Below, piece by piece: positions 385-27,781 of a stretch of 28,582 bases of DNA. The translations under genes were made by a program, and so were the position numbers. The stretch spans positions 1-28,582 of the forward strand of contig VJWM01000374.1 of NCBI GenBank assembly GCA_010909165.1, given 5' to 3'. Source of the stretch: Anthoceros angustus (Eukaryota > Plantae > Anthocerotophyta). The notes under the pieces are model-generated. The model saw only the letters and a list, made by a program, of their open reading frames with translations. It was not told where the DNA came from and ran no database searches. Each line of letters begins with the position of its first letter. The first letter of the stretch is position 1.

Positions 385-524
385 TGTCTTTCTTAGCACA
401 TAGCGGTATGGCATCTTTCTCTCGTGTATGTGTCATCCTATCCTACACCTTGCTCATATGCTTATTCAGGGACAATCATGCAAGCTTTATTTCACTCAAG
501 TGAGGTTAGTTCACCCCAAATGGC
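385..524 (-). repeat. Terminal repeat B2 (3' end of element 1)
   Basis: 400-524 (ATAGCGGTATGGCAT...TTCACCCCAAATGGC) is a direct repeat of 1032-1158; 385-399 carries the TGTC terminus. Confidence 0.85.
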
Positions 525-1020
525 AAAACGCGTTGATAATCCTCCCAAGCACTCTCATGAAATGCGAAGCCAGCAATCGCTTTCGTTGAGACCTTAGGGC
601 AACCTCGCCGACACTCCTCTATCCTGTGCTCACACTCGCCACCCCAGCGGAGTCAGAGCTGCCCTCTCTCGAGGCAAACATCAGCAATCCGCCGCGCACT
701 GCGGATTGCTGCCCCTTAAAACCACCACCGCTTTCGGCGAACGCGAATCGATCACGGGTAAGGCGGACGTGGCGCCCGCCCAATCCTTGACGACACGTGA
801 CGGCCAGATCACCGAACCCCGACCGACGCCGTGACCGTGCCGCGATCATCAACCCCGCCAAGCCTGCGGTGACCGCGATCACTGGCGCTTCATGCTCTTA
901 TGCGAACATGCCGTGGCTCCACCTATGACTATACACATGCTGCTCCACATGCCATCATGCCTATCACCACACACATGCATCCTTTCTCCTACGCCCATAT
1001 CCACAGCGATATGCCATGAC
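525..1020 (-). repeat. LTR-like repeat A2 of element 1
   Basis: Direct repeat of 9185-9672. It is near-identical over the CTTCATGCTCTTATGCGAACATG...GATATGCC block (~888-1015 vs ~9541-9658) and more indel-rich elsewhere. Confidence 0.85.
679..721 (-). promoter_or_regulatory. Putative promoter in repeat A: TATA-like TTTTAA ~26-31 nt upstream of a conserved GGATTGCTGATG motif, with a 10-bp inverted repeat
   Basis: AGCAATCCGC (683-692) / GCGGATTGCT (701-710) form a perfect stem. The equivalent site in element 2 has TATAAA at 24269-24274 and GGATTGTTGATG at 24234-24245. The transcription start is inferred. Confidence 0.5.
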
Positions 1021-1031
1021 GGCGCGCGAAG

Positions 1032-1158
1032 ATAGCGGTATGGCATTTCTCTCGTGTATGTGTCATCCTATCCTACACCTTGCTCATATGCGCTTTATTC
1101 GGACAATCATGCAAGCTTTATTTCACCCCAAGTGAGGTTAGGTTCACCCCAAAATAGC
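1032..1158 (-). repeat. Internal repeat B1 of element 1
   Basis: Direct repeat of 400-524, lying between the extra ORF stop (1209) and A2. Confidence 0.85.
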
Positions 1159-1208
1159 CCCCAAAGTCGGCCACAATTGATCTTTGGTTGTGTGACGCTT
1201 TGGACACT

Positions 1209-2045
1209 TCAAATACCATAAAAGCGCCGGTAAAACCGTCTGAACATACCGTCACGCAGCTGAGGCTCTGAGGGTTTGTCATGTTGTAACCCTCCTGTTG
1301 CCAATAGGGCCGCCACTCGCCGCTCCTCGGGATCAAAATATTCATCAACCTGTGCCTTGCCTAATCGCTGCCGCTCCCTAGCGCGATGTCGAGCCAATAG
1401 TTCTTCCTCCTCATCACTGTCCAGCTCGGTCTTGACCCTGGGAAGTTGTGGCCCATTTAATCCGTTTACATAATATTGCTTTTCAAGTACCTGCCCGCAG
1501 AAATCCCCACATTGCTATTAAGGAGATACCAACATTCAGACGTTGGTTCGTCCCACTCTAACACTCCCGTCCTCAAACATGCAAACACCACAGCAGAAAG
1601 CCACAGGAGGTAGGGATGGCATCTGGCCCGCTCTTTCCGATGGGTATGAGCCATACCTTTAAAATTGCGCCGTCTGGCTTCTCTTCTTGCCGATACATGA
1701 GGAAGCCTTCCTTGGGCGATGATCGAAAACTTGGTGCATAAGCGGATGATGCTCCGGTTGCGAAAGGCATACAATAAGCGGGTCCACCACAGTTTTGTTC
1801 ATGCCCGACTGCGAGTTCAAAAGGTCCTTGTGATCATAGGAAAATTCTCCACCGGACATGTCTCATGATGCGATTCCACATATAACAAGAGGCTTGCAAT
1901 TCGAGAAAGGTTTCCGGCGTTCGAGCTTGCGGTTGATACTTGCGTACCAGCAGGTTGCGCCACTTGTCCTCCACGGTCGGTGCAGAAATTGAGGCTGCTG
2001 TGAGCCATCCTGCGGCGAGTCACACATGTGGACCTCCAAATCCAT
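1209..2045 (-). CDS. Conserved extra ORF of unknown function in the env-like position (~280 aa, frameshifted)
   Basis: Stitched from ORF-track fragments 1863-2045, 1817-2095, 1659-1859, 1573-1770, 1466-1774 and 1209-1397. It aligns with 24747-25578 of element 2 (EDKW..LVRKY, ETFLELQA.LLYVESHHETC, YDH[KR]DL, TGVLEWDE, NVGI, YVNG, EEEL.ARHRA, MFRRFYRRFYGI*). The start codon is uncertain. Confidence 0.7.
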
Positions 2046-2644
2046 GTCAACCCCGACAACGCCGCCCTACACTTGCACTTGTGTTTGGCCCTCAATGCTT
2101 CATAATCAAACTAGGGCAACTCGCCCCACCTCCGACTTCCGTAGCGTGATGGCGTCCGTCGTGGATGCCCCCACGACTCCGATTTCTCAGCAGTGCAATT
2201 GGTGCTGTACAACCCTACATCACCTCCTCAGATGCCCCTTTCTTAAGGCACCGTGATTACCACCAATCGGTTCAAGTGCACAAGTACACACCCGATTGTC
2301 AGAGGGCGCCTCTATGGCCTCCTCCGCGCCAGCAAAGAGGTATGCCCGTGCGGGCCTCCGTGGCCCGAGCACCTCAGCCAACACCGCACCTCCTTCACCC
2401 TACGTGCTGCCGCCTCGTGCACGCCGGTACAAGGCTGCTGGTTAATGTGAGACCATCTTGTATTCCTCGTGGCGTCTGCCACTCCTTCGCTTCCAAACCC
2501 CGCGCCCGCTATCGTGGCGTGTCGGTGCTTGTGTGTAACACACATGGGTTTTCATGCCATTTTGCCCTATGGCGCGTGTCGGCTTCGCGGAGGCGGTTTT
2601 AGGCGAGCCATTGCCGCCCCCAGCCATTTCTTGATCGCTGAACA

Positions 2645-2775
2645 TCACCGATGGCATTCCACGCCATCGGTATCACCGTGAGGCGGGGGCAAACCACGCA
2701 TGGTACCCTCGGTTACATTTGTCACAAACAACATCACCGGATCCGTGATGTGGCCACGATTCCAAGATAAATCAA
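2645..2775 (-). CDS. PHD finger C-terminal to integrase (frameshifted)
   Basis: Alternative frame reads VVCDKCNRGYHAW, followed by PPP..VIP.G.ECHR. This is the C4-H-C3 PHD pattern, and element 2 has the same domain at the same position. Confidence 0.7.
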
Positions 2776-2799
2776 GCGGAGGCTGCCGGGCTGGTTGAG

Positions 2800-3860
2800 T
2801 CACAGTGTCTAGGTTGGGCAAATGACATGGTGCTAAGTGGCGCATGTGCTCCTTGCACCGTCGCCCGTCCTGGCCCTCCAGCTCAATCACCCCTTGTTCA
2901 CCCACACTTACCACTCGTAAGATTAATCGTCCGGTGCTTACATCCAACGTACTCGACGGTCGGTGTTGTAGATACACAAAGTCCCCTTCTTCGAATTTTC
3001 TTGCTTTGGGCTTCCATGATCCTCCGCGTGGCGTGCCGGAGTTGGTCTCGGTGTTGTCACGCTAGTTGTCCATAGCCATTGGCATCACCCGCTGAAAAAG
3101 CTTCGCTCGCTCTTGCAACTCCGTGAGGCACTGCTCCGGACACTGTGCCCAATCCACCGGTCGAGAATAAGTGTCCGCCACAATATTTGGCATCACGGCA
3201 TTCCGTCCGAACATGATGTAGTACGGACTGAAGTTGCCCAGCGCTGCCTGTACGCTGATCCTGTACCCCAATGCCACGTATGGCAGTAACTCATCCCAAC
3301 ACTCGGGTTCGATCTCAGTGCAATACTTGCGGAGAGAGTCCTTGAAAGTTTGCACCAACCGCTCGGCCAACCCGTCAGCTTGAGGGTGGTCTCGGGAGGT
3401 GCGGCGATGATCTATCGACTTGATCCAACGGTGTTTGAAATTCACCTCGGCTTCGTTGCCTTGGTCCGTCAACACTTAGCGGCTCCCATATCGGCTACAC
3501 ACTGCGAAATGTCCTTGCAGTATACTTGGAGCTTCTAATCGGCAGAAAGGCCAATTCCACCCATTTCGAGAAGTGCTCTATCATCAACATGCAATGCTTG
3601 TTACCTTGCCTAGTTGTGGGTAGTTCGGGCATCAAATCGACAGACCACCTGAAAAACAATCCTCTGATGGGCAGCGAGTGCAACACCACGTCCTGGCTGT
3701 TGAACCTTGCTTTCACCGCATCACAGGCAGCGCATCGCGATACCACCTGCTCCACATCAGCATACATGCCAGACCAAAAGTATGCGGTTTTCAGCATGTG
3801 ATGCGTTCGCTTCACACCAAAGTGTCAGCATCTTGTGCACCTTGGTCACCAATGGTTTCC
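2800..3860 (-). CDS. pol: Retroviral-type DDE integrase (HHCC zinc domain, core, C-terminal part; frameshifted)
   Basis: HFGVKRTHHMLKTAYFWSGMYADVEQVVSRCAACD, WSVDLM, EHFSKWVE, LTDQGNE, HPQADGLAERLVQTFK, WDELLPYVALGYR, SPYYIMFGR. Confidence 0.95.
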
Positions 3861-4129
3861 TTTCTTCCACGGGTGGCACCTCTTTGTTGATCCCTCGATC
3901 GACTATGAGCACCTTACCATCCTTGTACGCATAGCGAGCAATTCTTCAGCTTTTGGAGAGATACTTCATCCAAATCAGGCACATATCCGTCTCTCAGTGA
4001 ATGGCGTGTTCGAGCTTCCATATGTCTCGAGTCCCTTCCGATGGTTCTGTCGTTCTCTTCTATAGCCATCATGCGAGCACATCTTGGCCTATTCGAGTCT
4101 TGTCGTGATGGTGTCGCCGCCCACACGGG

Positions 4130-4540
4130 TTCTGCGAGCCCATCCGCATTGAGATGCACTTTTCCTGCCCGATGCACAATCTGCATATCATATTCTGACA
4201 ACAACAAGGCCCATCTGGCGAGCTTCCCGCTCAGCTTCATGTTAGTCATTAGCCAGTGCAGGGGTTGATGGTCTGTGACCAGCTGAAAGCTTCGACCAAA
4301 TAGTACACTCTAAAGTGCAGGACCGCCCACACGGCAGCGAGACATTCTCCTTCATAAGACGAGTAGTTGGCCTCTGCGGTGTTGTTCGATCTACTTGCAT
4401 ATGCCACGACCCTCTCTCTTCCTTCCTCATCCGCCTGTGCGAGCACGGCCCCTATGCCTACTGCACTCCAGTCCGTATACAAAACGAAGGGCCTTTCGAA
4501 GTTGGGCCTTCTAAGCATTGGCCTTTCTGCCAGCTGCTCT
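4130..4540 (-). CDS. pol: RNase H domain (Ty3/gypsy type)
   Basis: PFVLYTDWSAVGIGAVLAQ, VVAYASRS, NYSSYEGECLAAVWAVLHFRVY, KLARWALLLSEYDMQIVHRAGKVHLNADGL. Confidence 0.95.
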
Positions 4541-4599
4541 TTTAGCTCCTGCCATGCTTGCTCTGCTCCTGCCCCCAGTGCCAATGGACATCTTTTTTA

Positions 4600-5260
4600 A
4601 GCAACTCATACAACGGCTTGCAGGTGCCGCTCATGTTTCTTATGAACCGGCGATAATAGTTCACTAGCCCTGTGAATGCCCTCGTGGCCACATCCTTGGG
4701 TCTAGGCATGAGATTCCTTGCACCTTGGGTGTGGCAACACTCCTCGGTACAATTTGTGCCCCAAGTAGTCGATCTCTCGGTAGCAAATTTGCATTTTCTT
4801 GGATGGGCTTTCGGCGGTTGTGTTTGTAACATCTCCAAGTGCTCAAGGTGTTCTTCCAAACTATCGCTGAACACCAGGATGTCATCGATGTAGCACTTGA
4901 CAAACGCCAGTCCTTGCAGCTCCAAGTCTGCTACCCGTTGAAAATATATGGACGCGTTCTTTAATCCGAATGGCATGGTCTCCCATTCCCATAACTGCTC
5001 CTTGCCCCAAAATGCCGTCTTACACCTGTCTTTCTCCTCAATCACAATCTGGTTGAATCCAGACCGAAAGTCAAGTGTGGTGAAGTATTTGGCTTCGCCG
5101 ATGGCGTCAAAGATCTCGTCAGGGGTAGGCATGGGATACCGTTCCATGGGCGTTATCTCATTCAGGGCTCGATAATCCCCACACATTCTCCTGTCCTTCC
5201 ATTCCCCGTGTTCATCCTTTTTGAGCGGAAGCACAGTGGCTGCAGCATATTGCGAGGTTG
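4600..5260 (-). CDS. pol: Reverse transcriptase (Ty3/gypsy type)
   Basis: ORF 4542-5318: RMCGDYRALN, YFTTLDFRSGFNQI, KTAF, MPFGLKNA, catalytic YIDD (4881-4892), FTGLVNYYRRFI. Confidence 0.97.
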
Positions 5261-5677
5261 ACTTCCTGATCGACCAGCCTCTGCCAGCTCCTGGCACCGT
5301 TTGTCCACGATGTCCCACTCCATGGGGCTCAACTTATGTCTTCGTCGGAACACGGTTCATCGGTGGTGGTGGTGATCTTGAACTTGATGCGATCATATCG
5401 CCCCAATTCGGCCCAACTGAACGCAAAGGTACCTCGGTTTCTGAGTAGCATTTCCGAATCTTTTGCTGCTCAGCCGGTTGCAGCTCTTCACATATTTGCC
5501 ACTCATCGTCCGGACTTGCGTGGTTCTCTTCCGGTAGCAAAGGGGCAGCCACTGCTGTATGAACGGCTCGCTCTGGCTTCTCGCGTGAGGATCAGATCTA
5601 TCTTTGTCGTCACATATGAGCAGACGCTCCCTGCTGTCCTTTTGACACATGGCCAGCTGTATGGCCAACCCTGTAGT

Positions 5678-6564
5678 CAGCAACCATTGCATACAAGTGA
5701 TATCAAAGGCTTGCCCGATCAATCTGCACCGGAAAGATTGACACGCGGTGCCTGCACCATATCCCATGGCCCGCTCTCGTTCGGTCACCGTGGGCTCCCC
5801 AACTTCATTTCCCTCGCTGTCGCACCATGCCTCCTCCTCCTTTCCTGAACGCATAGGATTGGATGGTCTTGACAAGCGTGGGCCAGGCCCTTCTTGGCTT
5901 TCCAACCACATTCACCGGGTAATGAGGCAGTTTGTCCCTCTTACGCACTTGTTGTGAACATCGCCCAGGCTCCAGGATGTCATCTACACAACGCTGTTCT
6001 GGTACCGTCAACTGCCGGTGATGCCTCAGGTTGGTCACACTACCCACATTGGTCCAGAAACTTCGTACCCGGTGTGCATATGAGCCGGTTTGCACAGCAT
6101 CGACAATGAACTCTTCTCCCAGCCAACCTCTGAGTTGCGCATATTGTCTTCTCACACACTCGCGCTTGTCAAAAGCACCACACACATTTTCAAGCAGCAG
6201 GGGGTTGGTCTTACACTTCACCGCAGGATCGAATGACCTCCGCCAGTTCCATGCCATTGCAGGCCACGCCCAGCTTGGGAGAAGGTCTTGCACTCCCATC
6301 CTGCGATCAACATGTCTCCGTACCAATGACCCCAGGCGCCGGCTTACCCACGGTCGGATGTCCGCGGGCCTTTGCTCACGCGACCTTTAATGGCTTCCCT
6401 GCTCAACAAAGTGGGGTTCTCCTTTGTAGCGAATGATCCTGGCCTTAGCCACCGCGCGTCCTTTCATCCAGCTCGACACACGTGTACTTCACGGTGAATA
6501 CCACTTCTTAGTGCGCTTCCAACCACTGCGATCCCGTCGAGCACAGTTCCATCAAGTGAATGCC
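5678..6564 (-). CDS. C5 cytosine DNA methyltransferase domain, DNMT3-like, embedded in pol between protease and RT (frameshifted)
   Basis: Motifs in canonical order: I GIHLMELC..G (~6564-6530), II VKYTCVELDE, III ADIR, IV DMLIAGWECKTFSQAG (Cys at 6290-6292), VI LLLENV (6183-6191), VIII DAVQTGSYAHRVRSFWTN, IX EPTVTERERAMGY, X RCRLIGQAFDITCMQWLL. Motifs VIII-X resemble DNMT3 (DAKEVSAAHRARYFWGN; TEMERVFGF; RQRLLGRSWSVPVIRHLF). Confidence 0.88.
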
Positions 6565-6849
6565 TCGTCCATCCGCTGCCCATTGAATCACCTTGTTGTT
6601 GATTCGCAGCCTAGCCGGGTTCAAGGCCGGCATCTTCGGCAGGCTCTTCTCCGGACATAAGCGGGTCGCCGGCATTAGAGGTCCCTCGTCGGTGTCTTCG
6701 CATCACCGCCCTGCTGTGGAGTTCTTTTGATACACAGGCGGGCACTTACCTCACGACCCTCACCGTGACTCTTCCCTCATTAATTCCTCGGTCTCTTCCC
6801 AAACTTGGCTCTATGGCGCTTCCCTCTGCGTGTCGACCACCGCGATGTC

Positions 6850-7240
6850 TTTGCTGGTTCCTCGGCTCTTTTCATGCTAAGTGGAATCCTGGCCATGTGC
6901 GAGAAATCCCCATCTCTCCACCGAGGTCGGTAGAATGCCACTGAATGTAGTGGATCCACCCCCATCGCCGGTCCATGCGTGGCGTCAGCTCCGAGTAGCA
7001 CATCATAGTTGCTGGCACTTGATACCAGGCAATGAACCTCAATGACCGAAGCATCCTTGGTGCCTGGTTTGAACTCTATGCGGATGGGGTCTCGAGTGAT
7101 CCCCATTACTTGTTCTTTGGTGCGCCCGGCGTAGTGATCGCACCTCAGGGGCTTCAACTTTGTCCCCATACGGTGGAGTGCCTTACACTTTCGGGCACCA
7201 AGCAACTTGGATCCGCACTTTTATGTCTACCGGCACATTC
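6850..7240 (-). CDS. pol: Retropepsin-like aspartic protease (frameshifted)
   Basis: The C-terminal hydrophobic-Gly motif NYDVLLG is in ORF 6780-7205. A degenerate active-site region (VD..ADP) lies near 7215-7235. Position between gag and RT fits. Confidence 0.65.
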
Positions 7241-7699
7241 GAGGGCGAACCCATTCCGTGACACGGTTGTCCACCTTAGCGACTCCCCTTTGCCTCACCG
7301 GTGGCTTCGGATGTTCACCACACAAGCTAGTGAGCCCGGACACCACCTCGACTCCGGCATATGCTTTCTTCATCCAATCCTGCATTGCCGACCTGAATGT
7401 TTGTGGCTTGACTCCCAGCTCGCGCAAGCTGACCATGGGCACATCCAACGCTTTGTCCAACAACTCTATGTCCGGCGACTTCCTTTCTGGGGGTTTGAAG
7501 ACTTCGTGATCTTCCAGTTGTCTAAAGGACGCGGGCATTTTGAGTTGATTCCTAGCCCCGGCCCCCTTTCTCTTGATACCCTCTCCCATGTCAAGGTGAT
7601 TTTTCATACCGGTGTTTACCCCCATGGTCATTAGTGCGTACACCTCCTGATCTGAATCGTACTCTTCACAAGTGGCATTCGCGACTCCTGGTGTGCTGG

Positions 7700-8760
7700 C
7701 ATTCATGGCCAACTGCTCCTGGAGGCGATGCACCTCACTAAGCAGTGCCTTCCGAGTATAGTTCATTGATGATTTCATCTTATCACCCTGCCGATCCCCA
7801 ACTCCTTTGGGCTTGAGTTGGGTGACCTTGCCAAGCCGTGTGGCCCATTACAGCCTGAGTCACGGTTCCTTCTCCTTCGCTCCACCACTCGATACCACTT
7901 TCGGATGCTGCATGCGCACCTCCACCGGAACACTTCATCATGGCCTTGGCATTCACGCCTTTATTGTGCGTTCCCTAATAGAGCCTCTCGGTTATGCTCC
8001 CTTGTCCATTGAGCGGTCCTCCCATGCGCCTTGTGGGCATTCGCAGCATGCTGATGCCCTTTGACGAGATTGTGCTCTTCCCAATATGCACTAGTCACGG
8101 CATCCCCTTTCATGACCCTCTCTGCCATTTCATAGGCCTGATCCAGCTCATAATCCGCACCATGCATCATGTGCAGAAAGTTGGCAATCACTCTTCTCTC
8201 TTCCCGGGAGGCGGCTATGTAGATTTGGGCGGCTTCCCGCATCGTCTTTACGCGAGTGTCCTTTACCAATTGCCTCAATCTTAGATACGCCGACCTGAGT
8301 GGTTCATTGGGCTTGATGACGAATCTCGACAACTCCTGGATTTTCTCTATGGAGGACACTGGGAACATTTCCGCGAACTTGTTGAACATCTCATCCACCA
8401 AAAACGTAATGGCGGCCTTGCGTCTGCTGGATGAGCGTCCCTCTTAGTCTCCTTTAGCGTCCTTTTGGCTCACATGCACCGTGCCAAGGGACCGTGCATC
8501 TTGAGAATAATCAGTCCTTACAATCAGCATGGAGTGCTTCTCGGCCAAGAAGTGCTCATTTTCCTCAAGGCCATCTCGGAGTGAACTCCGATTTGTACTT
8601 GAGGACCATCATCAATCGTCCCAGATTTCTCTTGAAGTCAATAGCGACATCTGTAGTCGTGAAGACGTCATTTTACTAGGTGCTGGCTCATATTCCATCC
8701 TGATCTCTCCACCGCTGTCTTCAAATGCGATGGAGCGAATGGGGCTTCTACTCCACTCAA
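7700..8760 (-). CDS. gag: gag-like capsid protein (frameshifted; boundaries approximate)
   Basis: ORF 7961-8401 (KIQELSRFVIKPNEPLRSAYLRLRQLV...YELDQAYEMAERV) has the retrotransposon Gag pattern L..F.Q..NE....Y..R...L and lies 5' of the protease. Confidence 0.7.
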
Positions 8761-9181
8761 ACTGACCGGCGCTCCTGCGACCCAAGGAATGTTGGGCTGG
8801 GGCTCTGGCGCTTCACCGGGGTGCTTTCGTTTTATCCAACACGTAGAATACCATCACCGTGTCAATCTCGCCCCCTGCGTGACACTATATGGCATTCGTC
8901 CAAAGTTAGTGTTGGTCCCGCCGTTAGTCGATCCGCCGGCCAGCCAATTTATCCACCACTTCTTCCTCCCGGCCTTTACGGGTAAGAAGGTTCTATCTCG
9001 CCAAGAGGCCCCGCTAACTCTGATGGAGCGGCAGCATAAAACAGCGAATAATCCACGATGCTCTGCAAAGCCCACCACCGCTTGGGCTTGGCATCCGTGG
9101 GCCCCCACGGCTCGTCGATGGTGATAAGGCGCTCATGGTCTCACTATGGGTGGTCGTATGTCGGGGACTCGGGATTGCTAA

Positions 9182-9672
9182 TGTAAAACGCGGTCGGTAA
9201 TCCTCCCAAGCACTCTCATAAAATGCGGCTTGCGTATCGCTTTCGTGAGACCTTGGGCCTCGCCGACACTCCTCTATCCCAAGCTCACACTGCCACCCCA
9301 ACGGGAGCTGTATGGCTGCCCTCTCTACTGGGCAAACATCAGCAATCCGCCTCGCATCGCCAGTTCGCCGCCCTCAAAACACCTACACCTTTCGGGCGCA
9401 TCGATCACGGTGACGGACGTAGCCTCTATCCCGGTTGACACCGTGACCGCGCCGCGATCACCGAACCGACCGGCGTGGCCGTGACTGCGTGATCCACGAA
9501 CCCGGTAGCGCCCGTGACCGTACCCGCGATTACCGCTGCGCTTCATGCTCTTATGCGAACATGCCGTGGCTCCACCTATGACTATTCACATGCTGCTCCA
9601 CATGCCATCACCACACACATGCATCCTTTCTCTTACGCCCATATCCACAGCGATATGCCAGTTGCCATGACA
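9182..9672 (-). repeat. LTR-like repeat A1 (5' end of element 1)
   Basis: Direct repeat of 525-1020, bounded by TG (9182) and GACA (9672). No copy of repeat B lies on either side. Confidence 0.85.
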
Positions 9673-13461: not shown

Positions 13462-16400
13462 ATGCCAGGAGGTGGCCGTAAGCGTGCTCGACCAATGGTT
13501 CAGTATGCTTTTGAGAAATGTAATTGTAAACTGTAAGGGCAAAGGACGGGGAATCAAGTCCGTATTCATGAGCATACGGAATATATCGAGGCGGAGGGAG
13601 GCGCAAGTTCGGAAGAAACCCGCATTACAAGTGAAGACTCACCGTGACGGCAAGCGTATATGACGTGAGTTTCTAACCCCTTTGGTTAAGTATTTGAGAT
13701 GTATATTGAGTTTCTAACCACTATTTCGTGATACATTCAAGGTATATCATATTTAATATTAATATATATATTTATATTTATTTAGTATATGCATGCCTTT
13801 TAAATGTGCATGATGTGTCATTGATGCATGATGGTTTCGTAAGTTAAACTGTATGGTATGTAGTTTGTACTTATGATGATTATTTTTGTATAGTTGGCGT
13901 AACTTCCTATAGAGGACCATGTTAGCACTCTTGATCCCGATGATCGATGATGAACGCACTGTGGACACATGTCTCTGCAGTAGGAAAAATTTGGGTGGAA
14001 AGGAGAGTCACGTGGACCTTTCCTTGAACACCCTTACCACGAGGGAGAGGATGCAAACTCTCATGATGCTTGTGTTATACAAGCGTCTTCTCAAAGGTGT
14101 ATATCCCAAGGAGTGGGGAATGTGGGAGGAGGGGCCATTCCTATTAACAAACCATTTCCATATTGGGGTCGGATAGTGAAGGAGGCAACAAATCCAATAA
14201 TGGGGTTGGGTTTGTTTGCCTTGGAAAAATAAGTGTTAGTAGAAAGGCGGCGTTCCATTATTTGTGTTTGGTGGTCCCATGTATACACGTAGTTTAACAA
14301 GATTGGAGTATGTGAGATTGCGAGTTTCAAAAAATATGCCTTAACTTTCAAGATGTAGGCGTAAGAAGCTTACGTCACCTATAGTGTACTTGGATGGGCA
14401 TGTGGCATATGGGAATGTGGCGGGTTACATTAATAGCGATAAACAAGGTAAGCTCTAGGAGGAAGACGATGGGCATGAGCTATTGCATCATAGCCACATG
14501 ATGTGGGTGTGCACTTGGGCGGTGGACCATTGAAGCGGTGAGGAGTTGTTTGTTGAGTACAATTGGTTTGACCCAAATTATGCGATAGCAAGAATAAAGG
14601 CTAAAGGCGTGAGTATGCACATACTAAAGAGTATGTGCAAAGAGAGTGGAAGAAGATGAAGGCAAAGTTAATGCATGAAGACAAAGTGCGGATGCGGAGG
14701 AGTATGTAGATCTGCAGAATATGCAAAAGGGAATGGGAAAAGATGAAGGCAAAGTTGATGAAAGAGGATGTAGATTTAGAGTAGTATTTGCATGACATGT
14801 CTTTGAATGATGTGAATATTAGTTTTTCCTCATCGTGTTTGAAGTTTGAACATAGTTTATCTAGGTGATTGATATCCTTTAGAGATCATGGTCAAGCTAG
14901 CCTATAATAAAGTATTATTTATTTTATTTTATTTTATTTTATTTTCATAACATGTTATGTATGTTTGCTCAAAAATTCTAGGTTGAAGGGGAAAAATTCA
15001 TGGTGAATCCATGCATGAGGAAGAAAACGAATACATTCACCCTCATGAACAAGTGGCTATAGAGATGGTGGAGGCACTTGGTGGAGTAGCATTGCCATTT
15101 GACGAGGAAGAGGTAAATTCTTTGCCTAAGGAATTGAAGAGAATGCATACACCGCAACCACATCTTTATGGACCGGAGCCAAAACAAATTTGTCACATTT
15201 ACCTTATTATTGCTTAACGTCCGGAGGAGGCATTGTTGGTCGGATGCATCTGTGAATACTATGTTGGAATTAATAGGAGCTTAGGACTCCCGACAACAAG
15301 TTGCCCAAGAATAGAGCGAGATAAGAAAACTATTGAAGGATTTGGCCTGTCTTATAAATCTATACATGCTTGTCCAAATGATCCTATTATTTTCATGGCG
15401 AGCTGCTCCGCTAATGCTGCAAGTGTGGGGCAAATAGATACGAATACAAAGGGCAAAAAATACGTGAAGGTGTTGCGTTATTTCCCATTAATTCCTAGGT
15501 TGAAGCAAATGTTTAGGTGCAAGAAGCTAGCTAGTATGATGTCTTGGCATGCAACATTTAAGTCTAGTGATGGGATCATGAATACCATCGACGCCCAAGC
15601 GTGGAATATGTGGACCAAACATTTCCAGTTTGCTATGGAGACGCAATATTCGCTACTCGATGGGATTAACCCGTTTGGACACCAAGTTCTCAATATTCCA
15701 TTTGGCTACTTGTCAATTATAACTTGTTTCCATGGATGTCCATACGCAATGGACATATATTATTATCAATGATTATTCGGTCCGAAGCAAGTGAAAATGC
15801 GACATTTATTTCCGACCGCTTATTGAAGAGTTGAAGATATTGTGGGAAGAAGGCATAATAGTGGACGATATTTCACCTGGAGATGGGAATGCTCAAAAAC
15901 AATTTAGATTAAAAGCCTTATTGATGTGGACTATGCACGACTACCGTGATATACGGTCACTTCAAAGCTTCAAACCAAAGGGAAGCGCATGTCCAAAATG
16001 TTGGGATAAACTTGAAGCACGCAGATCACCACACACTAAAAAATGACGATGATAAAAATTCTAGAATGCACTTGCCAGAGGAACACAAGTTTAGAGTGGA
16101 AGAGAAGGACACATTTGATGGACGTGCTGTGACTGCAAGTGTTCTTCCGAGCGATGAACCTACAGCAACAGTTATCGTAAGAGAGAGTTTTTTACGGAAA
16201 ACCGCAACTAAGGCGACTGTTAGGCCTTGGGGTGTCACAAGCAATGAACCTTCAATTTTTTGGGAGCTTCCATATTGGGAGGTAGGTGTCGATCCCGTTT
16301 TTTTATCCTTCACTTTAATATATTATAAAATGATTATGCTTTTAGAACTTTGTAGCAATCGAATGCTTACAATTATCATCAATATGCATATGATGGCTGC

Positions 16401-18682
16401 AGTGTTGCTAATTAGACACTTGTTTGATATCATGCACATTGGAAAGAACGTTAGTGAACAAATTATGAGGCACATTTGTGGGGAGTTTGAAACCCTATGA
16501 GTCGAGAGATCTCGAACTATCAAATACCAAGGTGAATGGTGGCCCAAGGAGGCCCCAACCTAAACCCAAGCCCAAGGGTAGGGCTAGGGCCATGGGCCAT
16601 GGGCCATGGGCCATGGCAAGCCCCAAGCCAAGTATGGGCCTAGGCCTAGGCAATCAAGGAAAAGGAAGAGAGGACAAGATGATGCATTGATGAAGGAACG
16701 CGGTGCATACGGACTCCAAAGACCTTGGGTTCTTGGACATGGCACTAACTATTCTTATCCTAAAGCATTGGAGAAATTGAAGAGAAGGGTTTGCAACATC
16801 CGTATGCCCGGGTATGGGTCCAACTTGAAACGTTGTTTTAAGAAAGGGACACGAGAGACAATTTCACAAGTCCCATGATCATCATCATTTGTTATGTGAC
16901 ATATGGCCAATTGCCTTGAGAGGGTTGATACATCCACATGTGCATAAGGCTATATGTGATCTCAACTAATGCGTTGGCTTACCGCAAAAGAAATTGTGAA
17001 GGATGAGATTCTCGCTATGAAGGTCAAAATTGCGAGGTGATGTGCATTTTGAGAGAGAGTTTCCTACAACATTTCGACAAGCCGTCCATGTCATTATTCA
17101 TCCGTGCGAGGTTGAATTATGTGGGCCCACACGCTATCGTTGGATGTATTTTCTTGAACATATGAAAGTGCTAAAGAACCTTGTACGACAAAAAGCTCGA
17201 AGGAAGGAAGCATGGCTTTAGGATATCTAGCACAAGAGACAATGTTTTACTCTTGAATTCTTTGGAAATATCCATAATGCAGCTCCACGGATGTGGACAA
17301 TGAAAGAAGATGTTACTCAAAGTGGGAGTTGTTACAAGGATATGGAAAGATAAAGCGCCGATGTGGAAAGGAGTCAAGTGAGGAAAGTGATATTAGAGAA
17401 CTCGGAGTGGACTAAGCAATGGAAAGAAGTATATGATGACATCAAGATCGCCTTTTGTGGAGTGGTTAATCGATGAGGTGGAAGCATCTAAAAGGGAACG
17501 CATTAGAAATATATGGAAAGGAGGTGGTTGCACTTGTAAGAGGGCCATTTGAATCATGCGTTCTTATAGCATGATGTGGGCATATGGACATCATATCTTG
17601 GATCTTGAGGAAACAAACTTGTGATAGCATCATAACACAACTATATACATTTCTATGTATTGAAAACAGGTGACCGAACCCATTGCAGTAGCCTATGTTG
17701 GAACAAAGGAGAGGATTTATGAAGTTGATTTTGGAGTTACTACAAATATAAATGTGCTCAAGGTAAAGTGGTTCCACACCGGAATGAGGATAGGAGAGAT
17801 GACTCCACCGGTATGGTCATGTTGAATCCAAACAAAACGTTATCTCAAGAAAAGTCGAAAGACGAACCATTCGTTATGGTATCTCCGAAATTGGAGCAGA
17901 GCAAAATACCCAAAAATCTTGGAAACTTGTAGGTACAACATGTAGTAGAATGTGACGATTTTGATGGAAGACATGTCCATGAAGTGCTGGAATACAAGGA
18001 TGACATGGAAGACGAGGATATCGATAGAAGAAGTGGAAGATGATCATGAGCATATCGATGGAACTAGATATGTAGTGGAAGATAACGATGAAATGGAAGA
18101 TGAGGATATCGATGGAATATACGTTGTTGAAGATGACATGGAAGATGAAGATATTGATGGAAGACATGTAATCAAGACGTCGACATAGAAGATGAGGATA
18201 TTGATGAAAGACATGTAGTCGAAGATGAAGATGACATGGAAGATGAAGGAAGATGAAGAGGAAGATGATGGTGATAGTGATGATGAGGATGACAAGGAAG
18301 ATGCGGATGATGAGGAAGACGAGGATGCGGTAGAGAGGATATCGATGAAGAGACTACGGAAGATGAGGAGGGTAGCGAAAATGAAAAGGACATGGAATCA
18401 AAAGACGAGGACGCCGACAAGGAAGAAGAGGAAGATGAGGACAACAAGGAAGAAGAGGAAGATGTGGACGAAAGGGAAGATGAAGAGGAAAGTAAAGATG
18501 AGGATGATAAGGAAGATGAGGATGAAAGCAAAGATGAGGATGAAAGAAAAGATGAGGATGACAAGGAAGATGAGGATGAAAGCAAAGACGAGGATGACAA
18601 GGAAGATGAGGATGAAAGCAAAGATGAGGATGAAAGCAAAGACGAGGATGACAATAAAAAGATGAGGACAACAAATGAATGA
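13462..18682 (+). pseudogene. CACTA TnpD-like DDE transposase (Tnp2/Transposase_21, DUF4218- and DUF4216-like regions), spliced, frameshifted
   Basis: YKSIHACPND, VKVLRYFPLIPRLKQMF, LKALLMWTMHD, ACPKC, FWELPYWE, LLIRHLFDIMHIGKN, GYGSNL, EVELCGP.RYRWMYF.E.MKVLKNLVRQKAR. Likely GT-AG introns lie at 13665-13912, ending at 14981, and at ~16282-16402. The N-terminal start and acidic C-terminus are inferred. Confidence 0.88.
17950..18680 (+). repeat. Asp/Glu-rich low-complexity coding-like repeat (GAAGATGAGGATGA... units)
   Basis: ORF 18392-18682 is mostly D/E/K. Purine-rich tandem units follow the DUF4216-like region. Confidence 0.85.
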
Positions 18683-19129
18683 GCTTTTATAGATATCATC
18701 TTACGTACATCGATGAGGAATTGAGAATGAGCGATACGTCATGTATGCGGTGTTAGAAGGTTTTGAAATTTCAAAATGTGATACAATGCTTGGGGTTTGA
18801 GTTTGGTCTTAATTATAACATATACAAGGCTTGCTTATAATGTGTGAATTATTTTTACGATGGTGCGGGACTCGAACCATGAGCCCCTTATAATCGAACA
18901 TATATACTTCTAGTTCATTTCTGTCTGTAATGCCTTTGTCATTAAAGTGTTGATCTAGTTTCCTCCGGTACTTTTGCCAACGATAGCATGTACATCCTCG
19001 ACTATTCCCACAGCTTGTCCAGCCTTTCTTTGGATAGACAAAGATAGTCAAACCAAACCAAACCCAACCCAAGCAAATATTAGCCTTCCTCATAGCAAAC
19101 ATCCTTTCCCGAGCTTCGAGCTGGCCTTA

Positions 19130-19737: not shown

Positions 19738-19927
19738 CAACCTGTTTTAGTGAAAACCGCTCCCAAAATCACCCCTTGTGCCCCAATCTATTCAATACCA
19801 ATTGCAAGTAGCCTCCCTCGCATCAAACATCCCTTGTTGGCTCTATGCAAGGAAAAGGTAGCATCGCCTAGAAGAGACGAGCTCCAATATTGTGCAAGAG
19901 AATCGCCGGTTGCTCGACAAATATGAC

Positions 19928-20467
19928 CGCCATACAATGGCGCCCAGCACCTGACAATGTCTTGCTATACAATGGCGCCCAACGCCGACAATGGCTTGCC
20001 ATACAATGGCGCCTAACGCCCGAGAATGGCTTGCCATACAATGCCGGCGCACAACGCCCAACAATAATGGCGCCCAATTAACGCCCAACTATGGCGCCCA
20101 ATTAACACCCAACAATGGCGCCCAACGCACAACAATAATGGTGCCCAATTAACGCCCAACAATAATGGGACCCAACGCTCAACAATGGCGCCCAATTAAC
20201 GCCCAACAATGGCGCCCAATTAACGCCCAACAATGGTGCCCAATGCCCGACAATGGCTGGCCATACAATGGTGTCCAAATAACGTTCAACAATAGCGCCA
20301 ACAATAATGGCGCCCAATGCTCAACTATGACGCACAATTAACGCCCAATAATGGCGCCCAATGCTCAACTATGATGCACAATTAACGCCCAATAATGGCG
20401 CCCAACGCCCAACAATAATGGGACCCAACGCTCAACTATGGCGCAATTAACGCCCAAAATTGCGCCC
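19928..20467. repeat. GGCGCC-core satellite-like array, block 1
   Basis: Mixed units AATGGCGCCCAATTAACGCCCAAC, AATGGCTTGCCATAC and AATAATGGCGCCC. Confidence 0.92.
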
Positions 20468-21169
20468 AATACAATATGCCAAATTTAAAATACCCCACCT
20501 GCCTCCCCCGCCTTCCACCCCCATCAAAACTCTTCCTCGTTATCCCCGCCCCCACTTCCCTAAAGGAAAGAGTATGTAGTCGGAGAAAGCAACAATGCAA
20601 AGACATACTTATCCTTGAAGTAATCTTCGTAGATTTTCCGAGGAACCAGTCTAGAGCTTTCTGAAACATGCTATACTCTTTGCTAGTAAGAAATGTAATG
20701 AGGGCATGAATTTTCTAGAGAAGTTTAATCACAAAGTAAATTCGACCGGTGAGACGAGTGACTACGGATCCAATCTAGCCAAGGCTAACTAGATGATTAA
20801 AAGACTATATGGAAGCATTAGAACTTCATATGGCCCAAAAAGGCGGAACCGCCACCTCCCCATCAAAATCTAAACCCCAATCTATTTACTAATATACACC
20901 GATTCAAATTTCCAAGACGCAACGTGTGGGAACTCGAACATGTCGATGAGGCGGACTCGTACTATGAGTCCCTTTTCGAACATACTCCCAATTGATTTGT
21001 ACACCTTACAATGCCTTTGTCATCGTTGATCCAATTTCCATGGGTACTTTTGCCAATGGTAGCAAAGAGTAACCATGCCAAGCTATAGCTTGTCTAGCCT
21101 TTCTCTGGATAAACAAAGATAATCAACCTTCCAAGATGAAATGTTAACGTGCTTGCGACAAATATGATC

Positions 21170-22075
21170 GGCTATACAATGGTGCCCAACAATGGCGCCT
21201 AACAATGGCGCCAACGCCCAACAATGGCTTGTCATTCAATGGTGCCCAACGCCCAACAATAATGGCGCCCAATAATAATAATAATGGCGCCCAACAATGG
21301 CTTGTCATACAATGGCGCCAACAATGGCTTGCCATTCAAAGGTGCCCAACGCCCAACAATAATGGCGCCAATTAATGCCTAACTATGGCACCCAATTAAT
21401 GCCCAACAATGGCGCCCAACGCCCGACAATGGCTTGCCATTCGATGGTGCCCAACGCCCAACAATAATGGCGCCCAAATAACGCCTAACAATGGCGCCCA
21501 ATGCCCAATTATGGCGCCCAATTAACGCCCAACAATGGCGCCCAACGCCCGACAGTGGCTGGCCATAGAATGGTGCCCAAATAACACCCAATAATAATGG
21601 CGCCCAATGCCCAACAATGGCGCCCAATGCCCGACAATGGCTGGCCATACAATGGTGCCCAATAATAATAATGGCGCCTAACGCCCAACAATGGCCCAAT
21701 TAATGCCCAACAATGGCGCCTAACACCCAACAATGGCGCCTAACGCCTAACAATGGCGCCCAATTAACGCCCAACAATGGCGCTTAACGCCCAACTATGG
21801 CGCCAATTAACGCCAACAATGGCCAACACCCAACAATGGTACCAAATTAACGCCCAACAATGGCGCCCAATTAACGCCCAACAATGGCGCCTATTAATGC
21901 CCAACAATGGCGCCTACTAACGCCTAACAATGGCGCCTAATTAATGCCCAATAATGCCCAATTAACGCTAACAATGGCGCCTAACGCCCGACAATGGTGC
22001 CCAACGCCCAACAATGGCACCCAATTAACGCCTAACAGTGGCGCCCAACGCCCGACAATGGCTGGCCATACAATG
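21170..22075. repeat. GGCGCC-core satellite-like array, block 2
   Basis: Same unit types as block 1, longer array. Confidence 0.92.
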
Positions 22076-22388
22076 GCTCGAAAGGTAAGCATGTACGAAC
22101 ATGTACCATCGGGCAAGGCGCACTTGTGGGCATAGAGGTGGTACCGCTCACAATAAGAACACTAAAGAAAATGCTAAAGAGCGTGACGTACTAGTATTAG
22201 AGCACTAGCGGCCCCCCTCTCAACTTTTTCCCTCTCCATGCCAGACTGTGTGTAAGGGCTGGGATTAATGGAGTGCGAAGCCGAGTGGCACGCTCCATTT
22301 TGAATGGACGCGCTCATCATGCCCCCACAAAATAACCCCAATCAAATTTAAAATAGCCCTCCCCGCCTCACATTTTGAAGAAAAATGC

Positions 22389-23211
22389 TTTACAACGTAA
22401 TCTACAACAAGGGAATCACGTCATCAATCGTTGTAAATGGCCTCCTATCATATTTTTGTGATTAATAACAATAATAAAGAGTTTAAAAAATAAAGAACAC
22501 ATTTTGAGAAAATTACTTTACAACGTAATCTACAACAAGGAGCCATGTCATCAATCGTAAATGGCCTCCTATCATATTTTTGTGATTAATAATAATAATA
22601 AAGAGTTAAACAAATAAAGAACACATTTTGAGAAAAATGTTTTACAACGTAATCTACAACAAGGGAGCCATGTCATCAATCGCTGTTGTAAATGGCCTCC
22701 AATCATATTTTTGTGATTAATAATAATAATAAAGAGTTTTGAAGAAATAAAGAACAAATTTTGAGAAAAAGGCTTTTACAACGTAATCTACAACAAGGGA
22801 GCCACGTCATCGCATGCTGTTGTAAATGGCTTCCAATCATATTTTTGTGATTAATAATAATAACAAAGAGTTTTGAAGAAATAAAGAACAAATTTTGAGA
22901 AAAAGGCTTTTACAACGTAATCTACAACAAGGGAGCCACGTCATCGCATACTGTTGTAAATGGCTTCCAATCATATTTTTGTGATTAGTGATGTTAATAA
23001 AGATTTTTAGAAAAATAAAGATCAAATTTTGAAAAAAAGGCTTTTACAACGTAATCTACAACGTGCCAGCCATCAATCCGTTGTTGTAAATGAGCACCCA
23101 AAAGAGTGCCACATCATCCAACTAGAAACCCCGTTGTAAACCGAGTCTTAAAACTTGCCACATCAGCGAAACTCAAACCAATTTACAACGGAGGTGTTTA
23201 GACGTTGTAAA
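22389..23211. repeat. CACTA right subterminal tandem repeats (~124-134-bp unit) bearing inverted TTTACAACG/CGTTGTAAA motifs
   Basis: TTTACAACGTAATCTACAAC starts at 22389, 22517, 22641, 22775, 22909 and 23043. Further motif pairs occur at 23182 and 23203. Confidence 0.92.
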
Positions 23212-23264
23212 GATTGGGGGATTTGCAAAAGGGGTTTTGTAAAACACCCCTCTCCCTAGTAGTG

Positions 23265-23979: not shown

Positions 23980-24746
23980 TGTCGCGCCACAGCCGCATAG
24001 CAGGCATGGACATACATGTTATGTCATCAAAAAGTTTCAACCACTTCCTACGGGACTCCGTGACCCACACCCTTAACTATATGAGCTGTCACTACCTCCG
24101 TATCACAACGCTTGTCAATGGCAAAAATCCACTCCGTTTGTAATGGTTCTCCTCCTATACACACCCATTTACCGAATCACACACAAGATCTGTAAAACGC
24201 TTGGGATGCATGCATTTGTTCTCTTGAATCAGACATCAACAATCCGCTCCCAATGACGGATTGTTGGATTTATAGCCTACGCCGCGCGATCTTAATCACC
24301 GGCCCAAGAAGGCTGTGACCACGCCCGCACGCGCCGGAAGATCTTCGCCGCTGAGCCTTAATTACGCTTGTCCGTATTCTGATCGTATGGCTCATGTAGC
24401 CATGATGCCATCCTACCTCTATACTCATGCCATGCATCACGCCATCACATTCACAGTATTCGCATGCAGTCATGATTCATGCACCTCTTATCCCTACGCA
24501 CTTATATTGGACACACACACGTCATCACACCCAAACCCTACCTGCCTATCCATACCTCTACATGCCATGATACCGCCCGCCGCATGCATGGACGACATGT
24601 TATGTCATCAAAAGTTTCAACCACTTCCTCGGGACTCGTGACCCACACCCTTAACTACATGAGTTGTCACTTCACTGACGCCACAATGGCCCCGCCAAAG
24701 TTGCTGCTCAAGAACTGGTTGCGCTGTGTAGGCACCACTTTGGCAC

Positions 24747-25578
24747 TTATATGCCATAGAATCGTCGATAAAATCTCCGGAACATGCCCTAAGCTCGTGG
24801 CTCGACGGTTTGTCATGCTCCATTCTTCCGTATAACAACGCCACACGCCCGATCTTCCGGGTCAAAATACTCATCCACTGCGCTTTGCCCAACCGCACGC
24901 CTTTGCTCGATGTCGGGCCATGAGCTCCTCTTCTTCATCATCACCGCTGGGTTTCACTCTAGGCGTGCGCTCAAACCCATTCACATAATCTTGCGATGCA
25001 CCGAGCCCTAAGAAAATCCCCACATTGTCATTGACTGCATACCAAGATTCCAAAGTGGCCTCATCCCATTCCAACACTCCTGTGCAAGGCAAGCAAACAC
25101 CCTATAAAAAGCTCGTGGGTAACCAATGGCAAAACGCCCGCTTTCTCTCTATGTAAATGACTTAGCCACACTTTCGGACTTCTCGTCAATCACCGGCTTC
25201 TCCTTGTGCACATCGTGAACCCTTCGGCCAATGATCAAACACCGATGCATGACAGATGATGTTCCAATTTTCTAATGCCCCTCACAAGAACTCAGTCCAT
25301 ACGGCTTTGCCTGCTCATGCCCCTCGCTCGCCACCTCAAAAAGATCCCGATGATCATAAGGAAAACTTTCAATGTTGCAGGTCTCATGATGTGATTCTAC
25401 ATACAGCAAAAATGCTTGTAACTCCAGAAATGTCTCGGTCGTTCTCGGCTTGCCGGTGATATTTCCTTACCAAAGGCGTCTTCCATTTGTCTTCCCATGG
25501 TCTGTCTGAAAACTGTGGAACACTAGTGCTCATTCTGCGAAAACACGACTTGCAAGTGTGGTCCGCTTCCATATCCAT
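24747..25578 (-). pseudogene. Second copy of the conserved extra ORF (frameshifted)
   Basis: MDMEADHTCKSC...PWEDKWKTPLVRKY, ETFLELQAFLLYVESHHETCNIESFPYDHRDL, TGVLEWDEATLESWYAVNDNVGI, EEEELMARHRAK, ending MFRRFYRRFYGI*. Confidence 0.7.
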
Positions 25579-26410
25579 GTTAGCACTGTTAAGCCCAATG
25601 GGAATCCTTCACTTGATACTCTCACAATTGGAGGACGGATACCTTCAGTTGTTGGTCGAACAATCAAATGGATTGATTTGATTTTGAGATGACTGCTCAT
25701 TCCGACTCAAGCGAAAGTGTCAAGCTTGCCAATCAACACATGCCCGATTGAAATGAATCCCAACTTTGTCTCACGGCAAGTGGCTTGCCGCTTATGCAAA
25801 GAGATCATTATGCACGCTCCTTTGCTCGTGCCCGGATGCTTGGCGCCGCAAACACCCTAGCACTTGCTCTTCACGTCTCGCTTCCGTGGTATCTCCTCAC
25901 CGCTCTCACTTGAGTCGCAGGGTCCCTATCCACAACCTACAATACATATGCACCGCAACAACTGGATGATCACCGGCGCTCCAACTACATGATGCTCCAT
26001 GCTTTATTGCTCCTTCCCGCGCAATAATCGCTGTTGATGAACCGAATCAGCCGCCTTCCTTATTCCTCCACACGCGTGCCGCAATTGGCCTCCTCCCTGA
26101 CATGCACTGTGACAATTCACTGTCGCTTACCTTCCATGCACCGCCCACGATGATCGATGCACTCAACACCACCAATTTCCCCAAGCAAATCGCCGACCTT
26201 CTCCAAAGAACAATCCTCCTCCCCGCTAGTTCTTTGTTTACACTGTACTTCTCGCCTTGCCGCTACATCAGACGCCTCACACAACCCGGTATGTATTAAA
26301 TAAGTAACGGGCTTTTATAGGCCTACCTTCTTATTGACGCCTTCGACACCCACACCGTGAGTGCGTGCTTTACTTAGCCCCCATTTCCTTCGCCCTAACT
26401 TTTCCATTAT

Positions 26411-26546
26411 ACACTTGTGACAAATTCTCCTTCTCCGAATTGCCTTCAATGGTACGAAGACAAAAGACATGATGTCCTTGGTTGCATTGATCACATAATA
26501 GCATCGCTCAGATCGCTGATTTTGACCATGTATTCGCATGGCAGTC
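26411..26546 (-). pseudogene. PHD finger of element 2
   Basis: MLLCDQCNQGHHVFCL in one frame, then LKAI....ICHKC in the next. Confidence 0.75.
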
Positions 26547-26599
26547 AACAGTGGCTTCCATGCGCGTTGTATCAAGATCTGGCATGGGGCCGATGTCGA

Positions 26600-27260
26600 T
26601 GTGTTCCTTTGCATCGGCTACCATCTTGCCCTTCCAACTCGATGACCCCTTGCTCACCAACGCTCACCACTGCAAAATTAACTCCTGCGGCTCACGTCCA
26701 AAGTGCCGAAGGACGATGTTGAAGATACAAGTCACCTACTGAACTTCCGCCTTTGGCTTCCATGATCCTCCTCGTGAATGCGCCTCACCGATCTCTTGTT
26801 GCGATAGCGATTGTCCATTGCCATGGGTATCACTCGCTGTAACAACTTGGCCCTATTTCGTAACCTCGAGCAACATTCATTCACATTTTGTGTCCAATCC
26901 ATCGTTTGGAATACGTGTCACCACTATGTTGGGTAACACAAGATTCCCGCCAAACATGATATAATAAGGAGGTTGCTGTGGCCGCTCAGACATGATTCTC
27001 AGGCCCAAGGCAACATACGGTAGCAACTCATCCCAACAATTAGGCTCGACTGCGGCAAGATTTAAGAGCATCCTTGAAAGTTTGCACCAGCCTTTCGCCA
27101 AACCGTCATCCCTCGAGGATGGTCCCGGATGTGCGCCCTCGCGATCTATCAAACTCCGATCTAACAACGCTTGGAACTCACCGAATTCATTTCCTTGATC
27201 GCCAACATCTCCGCATGCCTTCCATACCCGGCCAAAACACAGCTGTAGGAAGCCCGTGCG
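26600..27260 (-). pseudogene. Integrase core and C-terminus of element 2
   Basis: DQGNEF, CWDELLPYVALG, PPYYIMFG, ELEGQDGSRCKEH; collinear with 2800-3500. Confidence 0.9.
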
Positions 27261-27781
27261 TGAGCGTGAAGTCCTCGAAGCCTCCTGCCTCACGCCCCCG
27301 AGTTCTCCGGGCCTGCCTACCGCTTTAACGTTTGCTCACGCCGATTTGAGCAAGGGTCCCTGCGCTCGTCCCCGCACACCACCACACGTTAGGGTCGTCA
27401 CGTGACTGGACCGCCTCTCGAGTCGTGCTTGCTGCTGACTCGGGACTCACGTTAGCAAGAAGACGCACAAGGGTCCTGCAAGGAAACGCGGGTGATCAAC
27501 ACAAGAGAAAGATACTTTACTAGAGCAACTTCGCCCCTCTTATACTACGCCCAAGGTCATGCCTTTATTACACTCCTATTCGAGCGGGTGGCACTCGGTG
27601 CCCCAATCACCGCCTACCATCTTCACGCCCCCTATCTCCGCTGGCCGGGCGGTGGGCCTGGGAATGCCCTTGGTTCCGCGCCGATGACCCCACCTTGCTC
27701 TGCTGCGGGCGCACCCAATCGGATGATCCGCGAGGCGGGACCCTTCCCTTCCCGAGACCTCGCGTTAGTCACGGTCCGACA
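27261..27781 (-). repeat. Possible LTR of another retroelement truncating element 2
   Basis: Minus strand starts TGTCGGACC (27781), with a purine-rich GGAGAGGAGGATGGTGG ~10 nt upstream and a TATAAG box near 27539-27544. No second copy is in the window and the left boundary is unresolved. Confidence 0.4.

Follow-up and report, generated by a model that had tools for sequence, protein, structure and literature searches.

The window described here, the whole analysed stretch of 28,582 nt from Anthoceros angustus (contig VJWM01000374.1), contains two diverged Ty3/Gypsy elements on its minus strand. Behind the integrase-PHD part that closes pol, and ahead of the 3' repeats, both elements carry a sense open reading frame (ORF), and these two frames are homologous. 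We refer to them as ORF-X copy A (element 1) and copy B (element 2). The preliminary description had assigned such an ORF to the env position, and its location as a sense frame lying between pol and the 3' repeat is confirmed. Element 1 comprises the following features.

385..9672, minus strand: element 1, of the Ty3/Gypsy-DNMT type; its ends are TG...CA, with TCCT as a candidate 4-bp target duplication (4 bp matching next to TG/CA)
9185..9660, minus strand: repeat A1 at the 5' end of element 1, matching 525-1016
5633..6368, minus strand: DNMT3-like C5 methyltransferase region upstream of the reverse transcriptase; 11 homologues, most with PF00145, the window piece itself being without a Pfam match
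4133..5330, minus strand: reverse transcriptase and RNase H (PF00078, PF17919, PF17917)
2792..3824, minus strand: integrase with H2C2, core and C-terminal part (PF17921; tblastn of rve-bearing homologues)
2645..2790, minus strand: PHD finger at the end of pol, aligning to PF00628-bearing homologues and to element 2
2046..2640, minus strand: spacer between PHD finger and ORF-X (spacer A), with a weak coding-like signal (z 2.4)
1209..2045, minus strand: ORF-X copy A, about 280 codons, frameshifted; ATG at 2045, TGA at 1211-1209
1032..1153, minus strand: repeat B1, 55 nt past the ORF-X stop, matching 400-520 with 1 substitution and 5 indels
525..1016, minus strand: repeat A2, matching A1
400..520, minus strand: repeat B2, matching B1

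The 5' part of element 2 lies outside the window. Its remaining features are as follows.

26454..27272, minus strand: C-terminal half of the integrase and PHD finger of element 2
25579..26420, minus strand: spacer between PHD finger and ORF-X (spacer B), without coding-like signal (z -0.9)
24747..25578, minus strand: ORF-X copy B, about 280 codons, frameshifted, with one in-frame stop; ATG at 25578, TAA at 24749-24747
24000..24671, minus strand: 3' repeat block of element 2 with B1' (24582-24671), the presumed A2' (24094-24570, weakly similar to A2) and B2' (24000-24093)

The Pfam domains of element 1 follow the Ty3/Gypsy order of reverse transcriptase (RT), RNase H and integrase. A C5 DNA methyltransferase (DNMT) domain is recognised within its pol through the homologues, and indels obscure the continuity of its frame with that of the RT. 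In an RT tree of 25 rows, from which loci without an RT match over 130 residues were left out (L041 among them), element 1 groups with locus L001, a Closterium protein and the entries P0017 and P0018 (support 97/97). Its repeats are arranged as A1...B1-A2-B2, which is an A...B-A-B layout; element 2 shows the 3' block only. A Gypsy element with a Dnmt3 in pol and DIRS-like repeats is known from Klebsormidium nitens as KnitGypsy-Dnmt3 (De Mendoza et al., PMC5890265), a name that our literature search located in one publication only. Since this element has been described with a DNMT in pol and A...B-A-B repeats, the frame of the host element is already known. As far as the accessible part of that description goes, element 1 resembles KnitGypsy-Dnmt3 in its Gypsy domain set, in the DNMT3-like domain inside pol and in the DIRS-like repeat arrangement. 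In contrast to element 1, the accessible text names neither a PHD finger nor an ORF behind pol, and the term 'PHD' is absent from three supplements of the paper. A description of a third ORF in Gypsy-DNMT3 elements was not found by a literature search that covered titles and the starts of abstracts, with subscription journals mostly outside its scope.

Some further observations concern the ends and the surroundings of the elements. There is 1 substitution between B1 and B2 (117 nt) but 66 between A1 and A2 (457 nt). Such a difference is odd within one insertion and suggests that the element is recombinant, that gene conversion took place or that the assembly is responsible. The B1/A2 junction is framed in both elements (1013-1044 and 24565-24591) by the short inverted repeat CCAT...ATGG, and the start of the A repeat, TCATGGCA, is common to both families. 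The segment 8450-9180, between repeat A1 and the ORF in gag position, is coding-like (z 3.8); gag may start further upstream. At 23201-24018 an integrase fragment of a third Gypsy element adjoins the 3' end of element 2 and is perhaps the target into which element 2 inserted. The regions 15200-18700 and 19900-23100, between elements 1 and 2, contain a transposase of the CACTA type (PF02992), a repeat tract that is acidic, and repeat arrays with units of 20-24 nt and of 134 nt.

The DNA of the two ORF-X copies is 65% identical over 779 nt (E 8e-19). Their local alignment scores 420, and the best of 200 shuffles scores 40. Their last 13 residues, GMFRRFYRRFYGI, are the same. Two ORFs with these limits, sharing peptide blocks and a C-terminus, had been proposed before, and this proposal is confirmed. 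Read through with an X for each break, the copies comprise 291 (A) and 286 (B) positions, and 154 of 246 aligned residues are identical, a figure that leans high because the read-through path was picked for similarity. Along this path copy A has 11 frame changes and copy B has 10 and the in-frame stop, neither copy is open, and in the middle fifth the frame is ambiguous. The excess of indels is not specific to ORF-X: 25 indels were counted over 601 nt between the two integrases, and the nearly identical B1/B2 repeats have 5 indels beside a single substitution. We infer that many of the frame breaks in ORF-X are sequencing errors.

Around the ORF the two elements were said to be largely unalignable. 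This is correct for the two spacers, which align neither as DNA (score reached by 99 of 200 shuffles) nor as protein, and for the B repeats of elements 1 and 2 (no alignment, 93 of 200 shuffles), but it does not apply to the A repeats, for which a weak alignment was obtained whose score none of 200 shuffles reached. The 55-75 nt past the stop also align slightly between the elements (2 of 200 shuffles). The distance from the ORF end to B1, previously given as about 50 nt, measures 55 nt for copy A and roughly 75 nt for copy B.

For the analysis of selection, pN/pS was calculated on 159 codons from gap-free blocks of at least 24 nt, and 1000 column shuffles were passed through the same best-frame procedure. 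ORF-X has a pN of 0.20, a pS of 0.81 and a pN/pS of 0.24; dS is not estimable, because the synonymous sites are saturated at this pS. The shuffles gave 0.65 ± 0.08 with a minimum of 0.44, and none of the 1000 was as low as ORF-X, whose halves are both constrained (0.27 and 0.22). The integrase of the same two elements served as a control and gave a pN of 0.16, a pS of 0.73 and a pN/pS of 0.22. Two non-coding controls were not significant (p 0.09 and 0.40). On the opposite strand of ORF-X the ratio is 0.44 (p 0.002), higher than on the pol strand, and we take this signal as a shadow of the sense frame. A frame-free test likewise finds that the mismatches cluster by codon phase (0.385 vs 0.313, p 0.0002). 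Purifying selection on a protein, as suggested by the preliminary description, is thus supported, and ORF-X is conserved almost as tightly as integrase. It is extremely improbable that the similarity is due to chance, to a passively carried fragment or to a conserved RNA structure. The closed frames of both copies would fit such an explanation, but the indel excess also hits pol and the repeats; moreover, the ratio below all 1000 shuffles, its lower value on the pol strand and the saturated synonymous sites argue for a selected protein.

In both copies the ATG has a purine at -3 and a G at +4 and is located exactly at the onset of homology. However, a separate start of ORF-X is not certain, since the +1 frame across the ATG also appears conserved for nine codons and spacer A is coding-like. 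ORF-X might instead belong to the pol polyprotein as its C-terminal domain, with a rapidly evolving linker between it and integrase-PHD; it would then be packaged with integrase and help to choose or mark target sites. The second conserved frame and the coding-like spacer A are compatible with this arrangement, the true frames could be masked by indel noise, and many pols of algal-type relatives continue for 250-590 residues beyond the PHD finger or the integrase end. On the other hand, spacer B lacks a coding signal, the spacers are unalignable as DNA or protein, and the well-placed ATG coincides with the homology onset in both copies. We consider a pol domain distinctly unlikely.

The shared motifs of ORF-X are H-x-C, YVESHHETC, YDH[KR]D, GHE and FDH. 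The first ~190 residues contain many shared aromatic, His, Cys and acidic residues, and the rest consists of an acidic-then-basic stretch and an Arg/aromatic end. Of the N-terminal His/Cys cluster noted earlier, H-x-C is present in both copies and the second Cys (HxCxxC) is read in copy B only. AlphaFold models of fragments have a pLDDT of 50 and 56 and place helices, with low confidence, at the acidic-basic stretch and at the C-terminus. The nuclear-signal pattern K[KR]x[KR] does not occur in either copy.

A transmembrane segment is expected above a hydropathy threshold of 1.6. The best 19-residue values on the in-frame path are 1.45 and 1.29, in line with the earlier statement that there is no obvious transmembrane segment; this statement has to be qualified for the ambiguous middle, which reaches 1.59 and 1.83 in other frames. 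Neither terminus contains a hydrophobic stretch. Judged from these sequence properties, ORF-X is unlikely to be an envelope. It resembles the env-like aORF-3S of Athila and Bagy2, as presented in the accessible text of PMC7264820, in position, orientation and conservation across families, but it has no clear transmembrane segment on the in-frame path and no Pfam match, and belongs to a different Gypsy lineage.

A rather unlikely alternative is an RNA or particle helper that, like retroviral accessory proteins, attaches to the genomic RNA or to the virus-like particle, or mediates nuclear entry of the integration complex. ORFs of this kind have been suggested to act as chaperones or in nuclear import (PMC7264820, accessible text), and the sense position between pol and the 3' repeat together with the Arg/aromatic C-terminus, identical in both copies, would suit them. 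The protein is, however, slightly acidic (K+R 36, D+E 42-44), its fragments matched no RNA-binding family, and the gene is missing from distant relatives.

That no known family is recognisable in ORF-X was borne out by searches of its fragments against Pfam, PHROGs, NCBIfam and PDB, in which nothing credible was found; the Pfam set included an 89-residue N-terminal read-through. None of the query fragments exceeded about 120 in-frame residues, and a remote homologue may therefore have escaped these searches. The C-terminal half was compared with a collection of 5.8 billion sequences (twice) and with 1.84 billion representatives, the N-terminal half only with Pfam, PHROGs, NCBIfam, PDB, the Atlas, viral contigs, phage records and, as an exact motif, metagenomes. 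Word-based searches of the 5.8-billion collection yielded no homologue among 494 candidates for the C-terminal piece and 4316 for an alignment of the C-terminal half. With HMMER the C-terminal piece gave one match among the 1.84 billion representatives, a bacterial amidase with four peptidoglycan-binding repeats, which was rejected because the score was summed across the repeats and no tblastn match to ORF-X was obtained. The charged helix gave matches below the cut-off to the TarS linker (E 0.005) and XPB (E 0.7), and two phage records found by tblastn, both of one phage (E 0.6), were taken as noise. The ESM Atlas contained no usable match for pieces of 45 and 97 aa, exact motif scans found no occurrence in viral contigs or metagenomes, and scans with ORF-X pieces left none confirmed among 600 stretches of prokaryote genomes and 5 stretches of viral contigs.

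Two kinds of hidden family membership deserve attention, namely a captured host enzyme, e.g. a 2-oxoglutarate/Fe dioxygenase, and a highly diverged member of the TRP28 or plant mobile domain families. The signature of 2-oxoglutarate/Fe dioxygenases such as TET and AlkB is an HxD...H motif on a double-stranded beta-helix fold. YDH[KR]D would provide the HxD, which is present in both copies, but no match to the family was found. TRP28 (PF04195) of Retand and the antisense gene23 of Grande are, according to the accessible parts of PMC11963269 and PMC7264820, conserved accessory genes in the interval between pol and the 3' LTR for which a nuclear regulatory role was proposed. The spacings P...L (9) and P...F (9) in ORF-X recall P25/L34 and P46/F55 of TRP28 (PMC11963269; compared by eye): both copies have the P and the L, copy A alone has the second P, copy B alone has the F, and G21 and N47 are absent. 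Structure has exposed concealed homologies of accessory transposable element (TE) proteins before, as stated in the accessible text of PMC13547354. Nevertheless, no ORF-X fragment, the 89-residue read-through included, matched PF04195, plant mobile domain/VANC or any other Pfam family. Furthermore, TRP28 ORFs are antisense and, in the accessible text of PMC11963269, reported from flowering plants only, whereas ORF-X is a sense frame with its strongest constraint on the pol strand. Membership in a hidden family of either kind therefore appears improbable.

Related loci were retrieved with an alignment of the DNMT. They comprise 59 metagenome loci and 1 from a viral collection, several of them near-duplicates, on contigs without visible insertion ends. 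A general co-occurrence of ORF-X with the DNMT, listed for checking in the preliminary description, is contradicted by these loci: a two-sequence ORF-X profile matched none of the 60, against 37 of 60 for an equally built integrase profile. The integrase end is visible in 35 loci, and 18 of these have at least 1.2 kb past the first stop downstream of the PHD finger or integrase end. In 34 of the 35 the DNMT is located in front of the integrase (in element 1 it lies upstream of the RT), so that these loci are distant; close relatives are hardly sampled. The absence of ORF-X from the 60 DNMT loci favours a swappable accessory cargo over a core end-processing factor.

Other sequences are found behind the integrase in these relatives. 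In many algal-type loci pol itself extends 250-590 residues beyond the PHD finger or integrase end. Fifteen aligned tails are interrelated by blastp (L011 in the first part only), and a profile built from the 15 found no match in the window, ORF-X included (best score -3.5 bits). A weak match to the N6-adenine methyltransferase family PF02086 (E 8e-4) was obtained in one of nine scanned tails (L012). The pols of the algal-type relatives L004, L012, L020, L025, L026, L029, L031, L033, L035, L036, L040, L049 and L053 end with a PHD finger, a presumably Tudor-like segment and a DAM-like domain (PF02086 matched weakly in L012 only), and the same relatives have their DNMT between RNase H and integrase, a dual-methylase layout. 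This layout differs from that of the EpiLTRs, which have a DNMT4-related enzyme and a chromodomain in the accessible text of bioRxiv 10.64898/2026.05.21.726589. ORF-X is dissimilar to the DAM-like tail and seems to represent a gene of its own. Directly behind pol, large sense ORFs were found in L009 (7959-10250), L010 (7338-8738), L012 (10376-11830), L024 (4105-7462) and L057 (2612-3277); none of them resembles ORF-X or could be credibly placed in a Pfam family, and the first one of L024 is 35% identical to that of L057. Locus L041, with the domain order of element 1, has no ATG ORF of more than 56 codons in 1339 nt past pol. A junction-like motif in L041 was rejected (score 24 against a mean of 26 over all loci). 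ORF-X is therefore not a general DNMT partner, and the position behind the PHD finger holds varying cargo.

These loci also bear on the possibility that ORF-X makes or processes the unusual ends, i.e. joins or opens the A...B-A-B repeat junction, at the position that the tyrosine recombinase occupies in DIRS-like elements. Both elements with ORF-X have B-A-B at the 3' end, the constraint is as strong as that of integrase, and the conserved His, Asp and Glu residues could be catalytic. Yet insertion is accounted for by the DDE-type integrase of element 1, its TG...CA ends and its candidate target duplication. The ORF-X fragments matched no family of recombinases or nucleases, and the search for a DIRS/Ngaro tyrosine recombinase found no phage-integrase family in Pfam, PHROGs, NCBIfam or PDB. 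KnitGypsy-Dnmt3 has the same layout with no extra ORF named in its accessible text (PMC5890265), and L041, whose repeat layout is not visible, lacks a comparable ORF behind pol. Hence, a role in end formation seems unlikely. The env, TRP28, tyrosine recombinase and DAM readings of ORF-X are not supported.

We tentatively favour, as a possibility rather than a probability, that ORF-X is lineage-restricted and encodes a likely soluble accessory protein, whose target would be the DNA or nucleic acid of the element itself, or chromatin. This proposal of function is based on the neighbouring DNMT and PHD finger, on the DAM-like cargo in relatives and on precedent. With regard to the latter, the accessible texts describe gene23 of Grande as nuclear (PMC7264820), predict DNA binding for TRP28 (PMC11963269) and identify an ORF of an orchid Gypsy element as an AlkB demethylase (PMC9289625). 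ORF-X would have its own start and be made from a spliced or internally started RNA, in agreement with the purine at -3 and the G at +4. About 190 residues may form a folded core that holds metal through the His/Cys/Asp motifs, and the identical Arg/aromatic C-terminal helix may contact nucleic acid or a partner. Together with the DNMT3-like domain and the PHD finger, ORF-X would then form a chromatin toolkit of the element, for which the algal relatives use a DAM-like domain instead, and the protein would likely keep the element active. Accessory TE proteins evolve faster than core ones, as stated in the accessible part of PMC13547354. The constraint on ORF-X is near that on integrase, a point that could count against the accessory reading and speak for a core role. 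A more specific proposal, which we regard as rather unlikely, is a new family of metal-dependent enzymes of plant retrotransposons that rewrites silencing marks on the copies of the element itself, together with DNMT3 and PHD finger, or joins and opens the repeat junction behind the DIRS-like ends of these elements with a DDE integrase.

Other Gypsy elements also gather epigenetic modules at the end of pol, as the DAM-LTR and EpiLTR elements do (bioRxiv 10.64898/2026.05.21.726589, accessible text). The orchid Gypsy AlkB ORF (PMC9289625) and the ORF3 enzymes of bdelloids (PMC5408684) are, in the accessible texts, further extra ORFs of LTR elements that encode enzymes and not envelopes; their domains are recognisable, and ORF-X has no recognisable domain. 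Conserved extra ORFs in plant LTR elements are thus already known, and ORF-X adds a strongly constrained one in an unusual element. Because extra ORFs without an assigned function are common in these elements, the surprise is limited as long as ORF-X has no recognised fold or activity. Gypsy-DNMT3 elements stand out by a methyltransferase of their own and by split ends. As ORF-X is constrained across saturated synonymous divergence, it must serve some need of the element, and it is a compact candidate for coping with host silencing or for building the ends.
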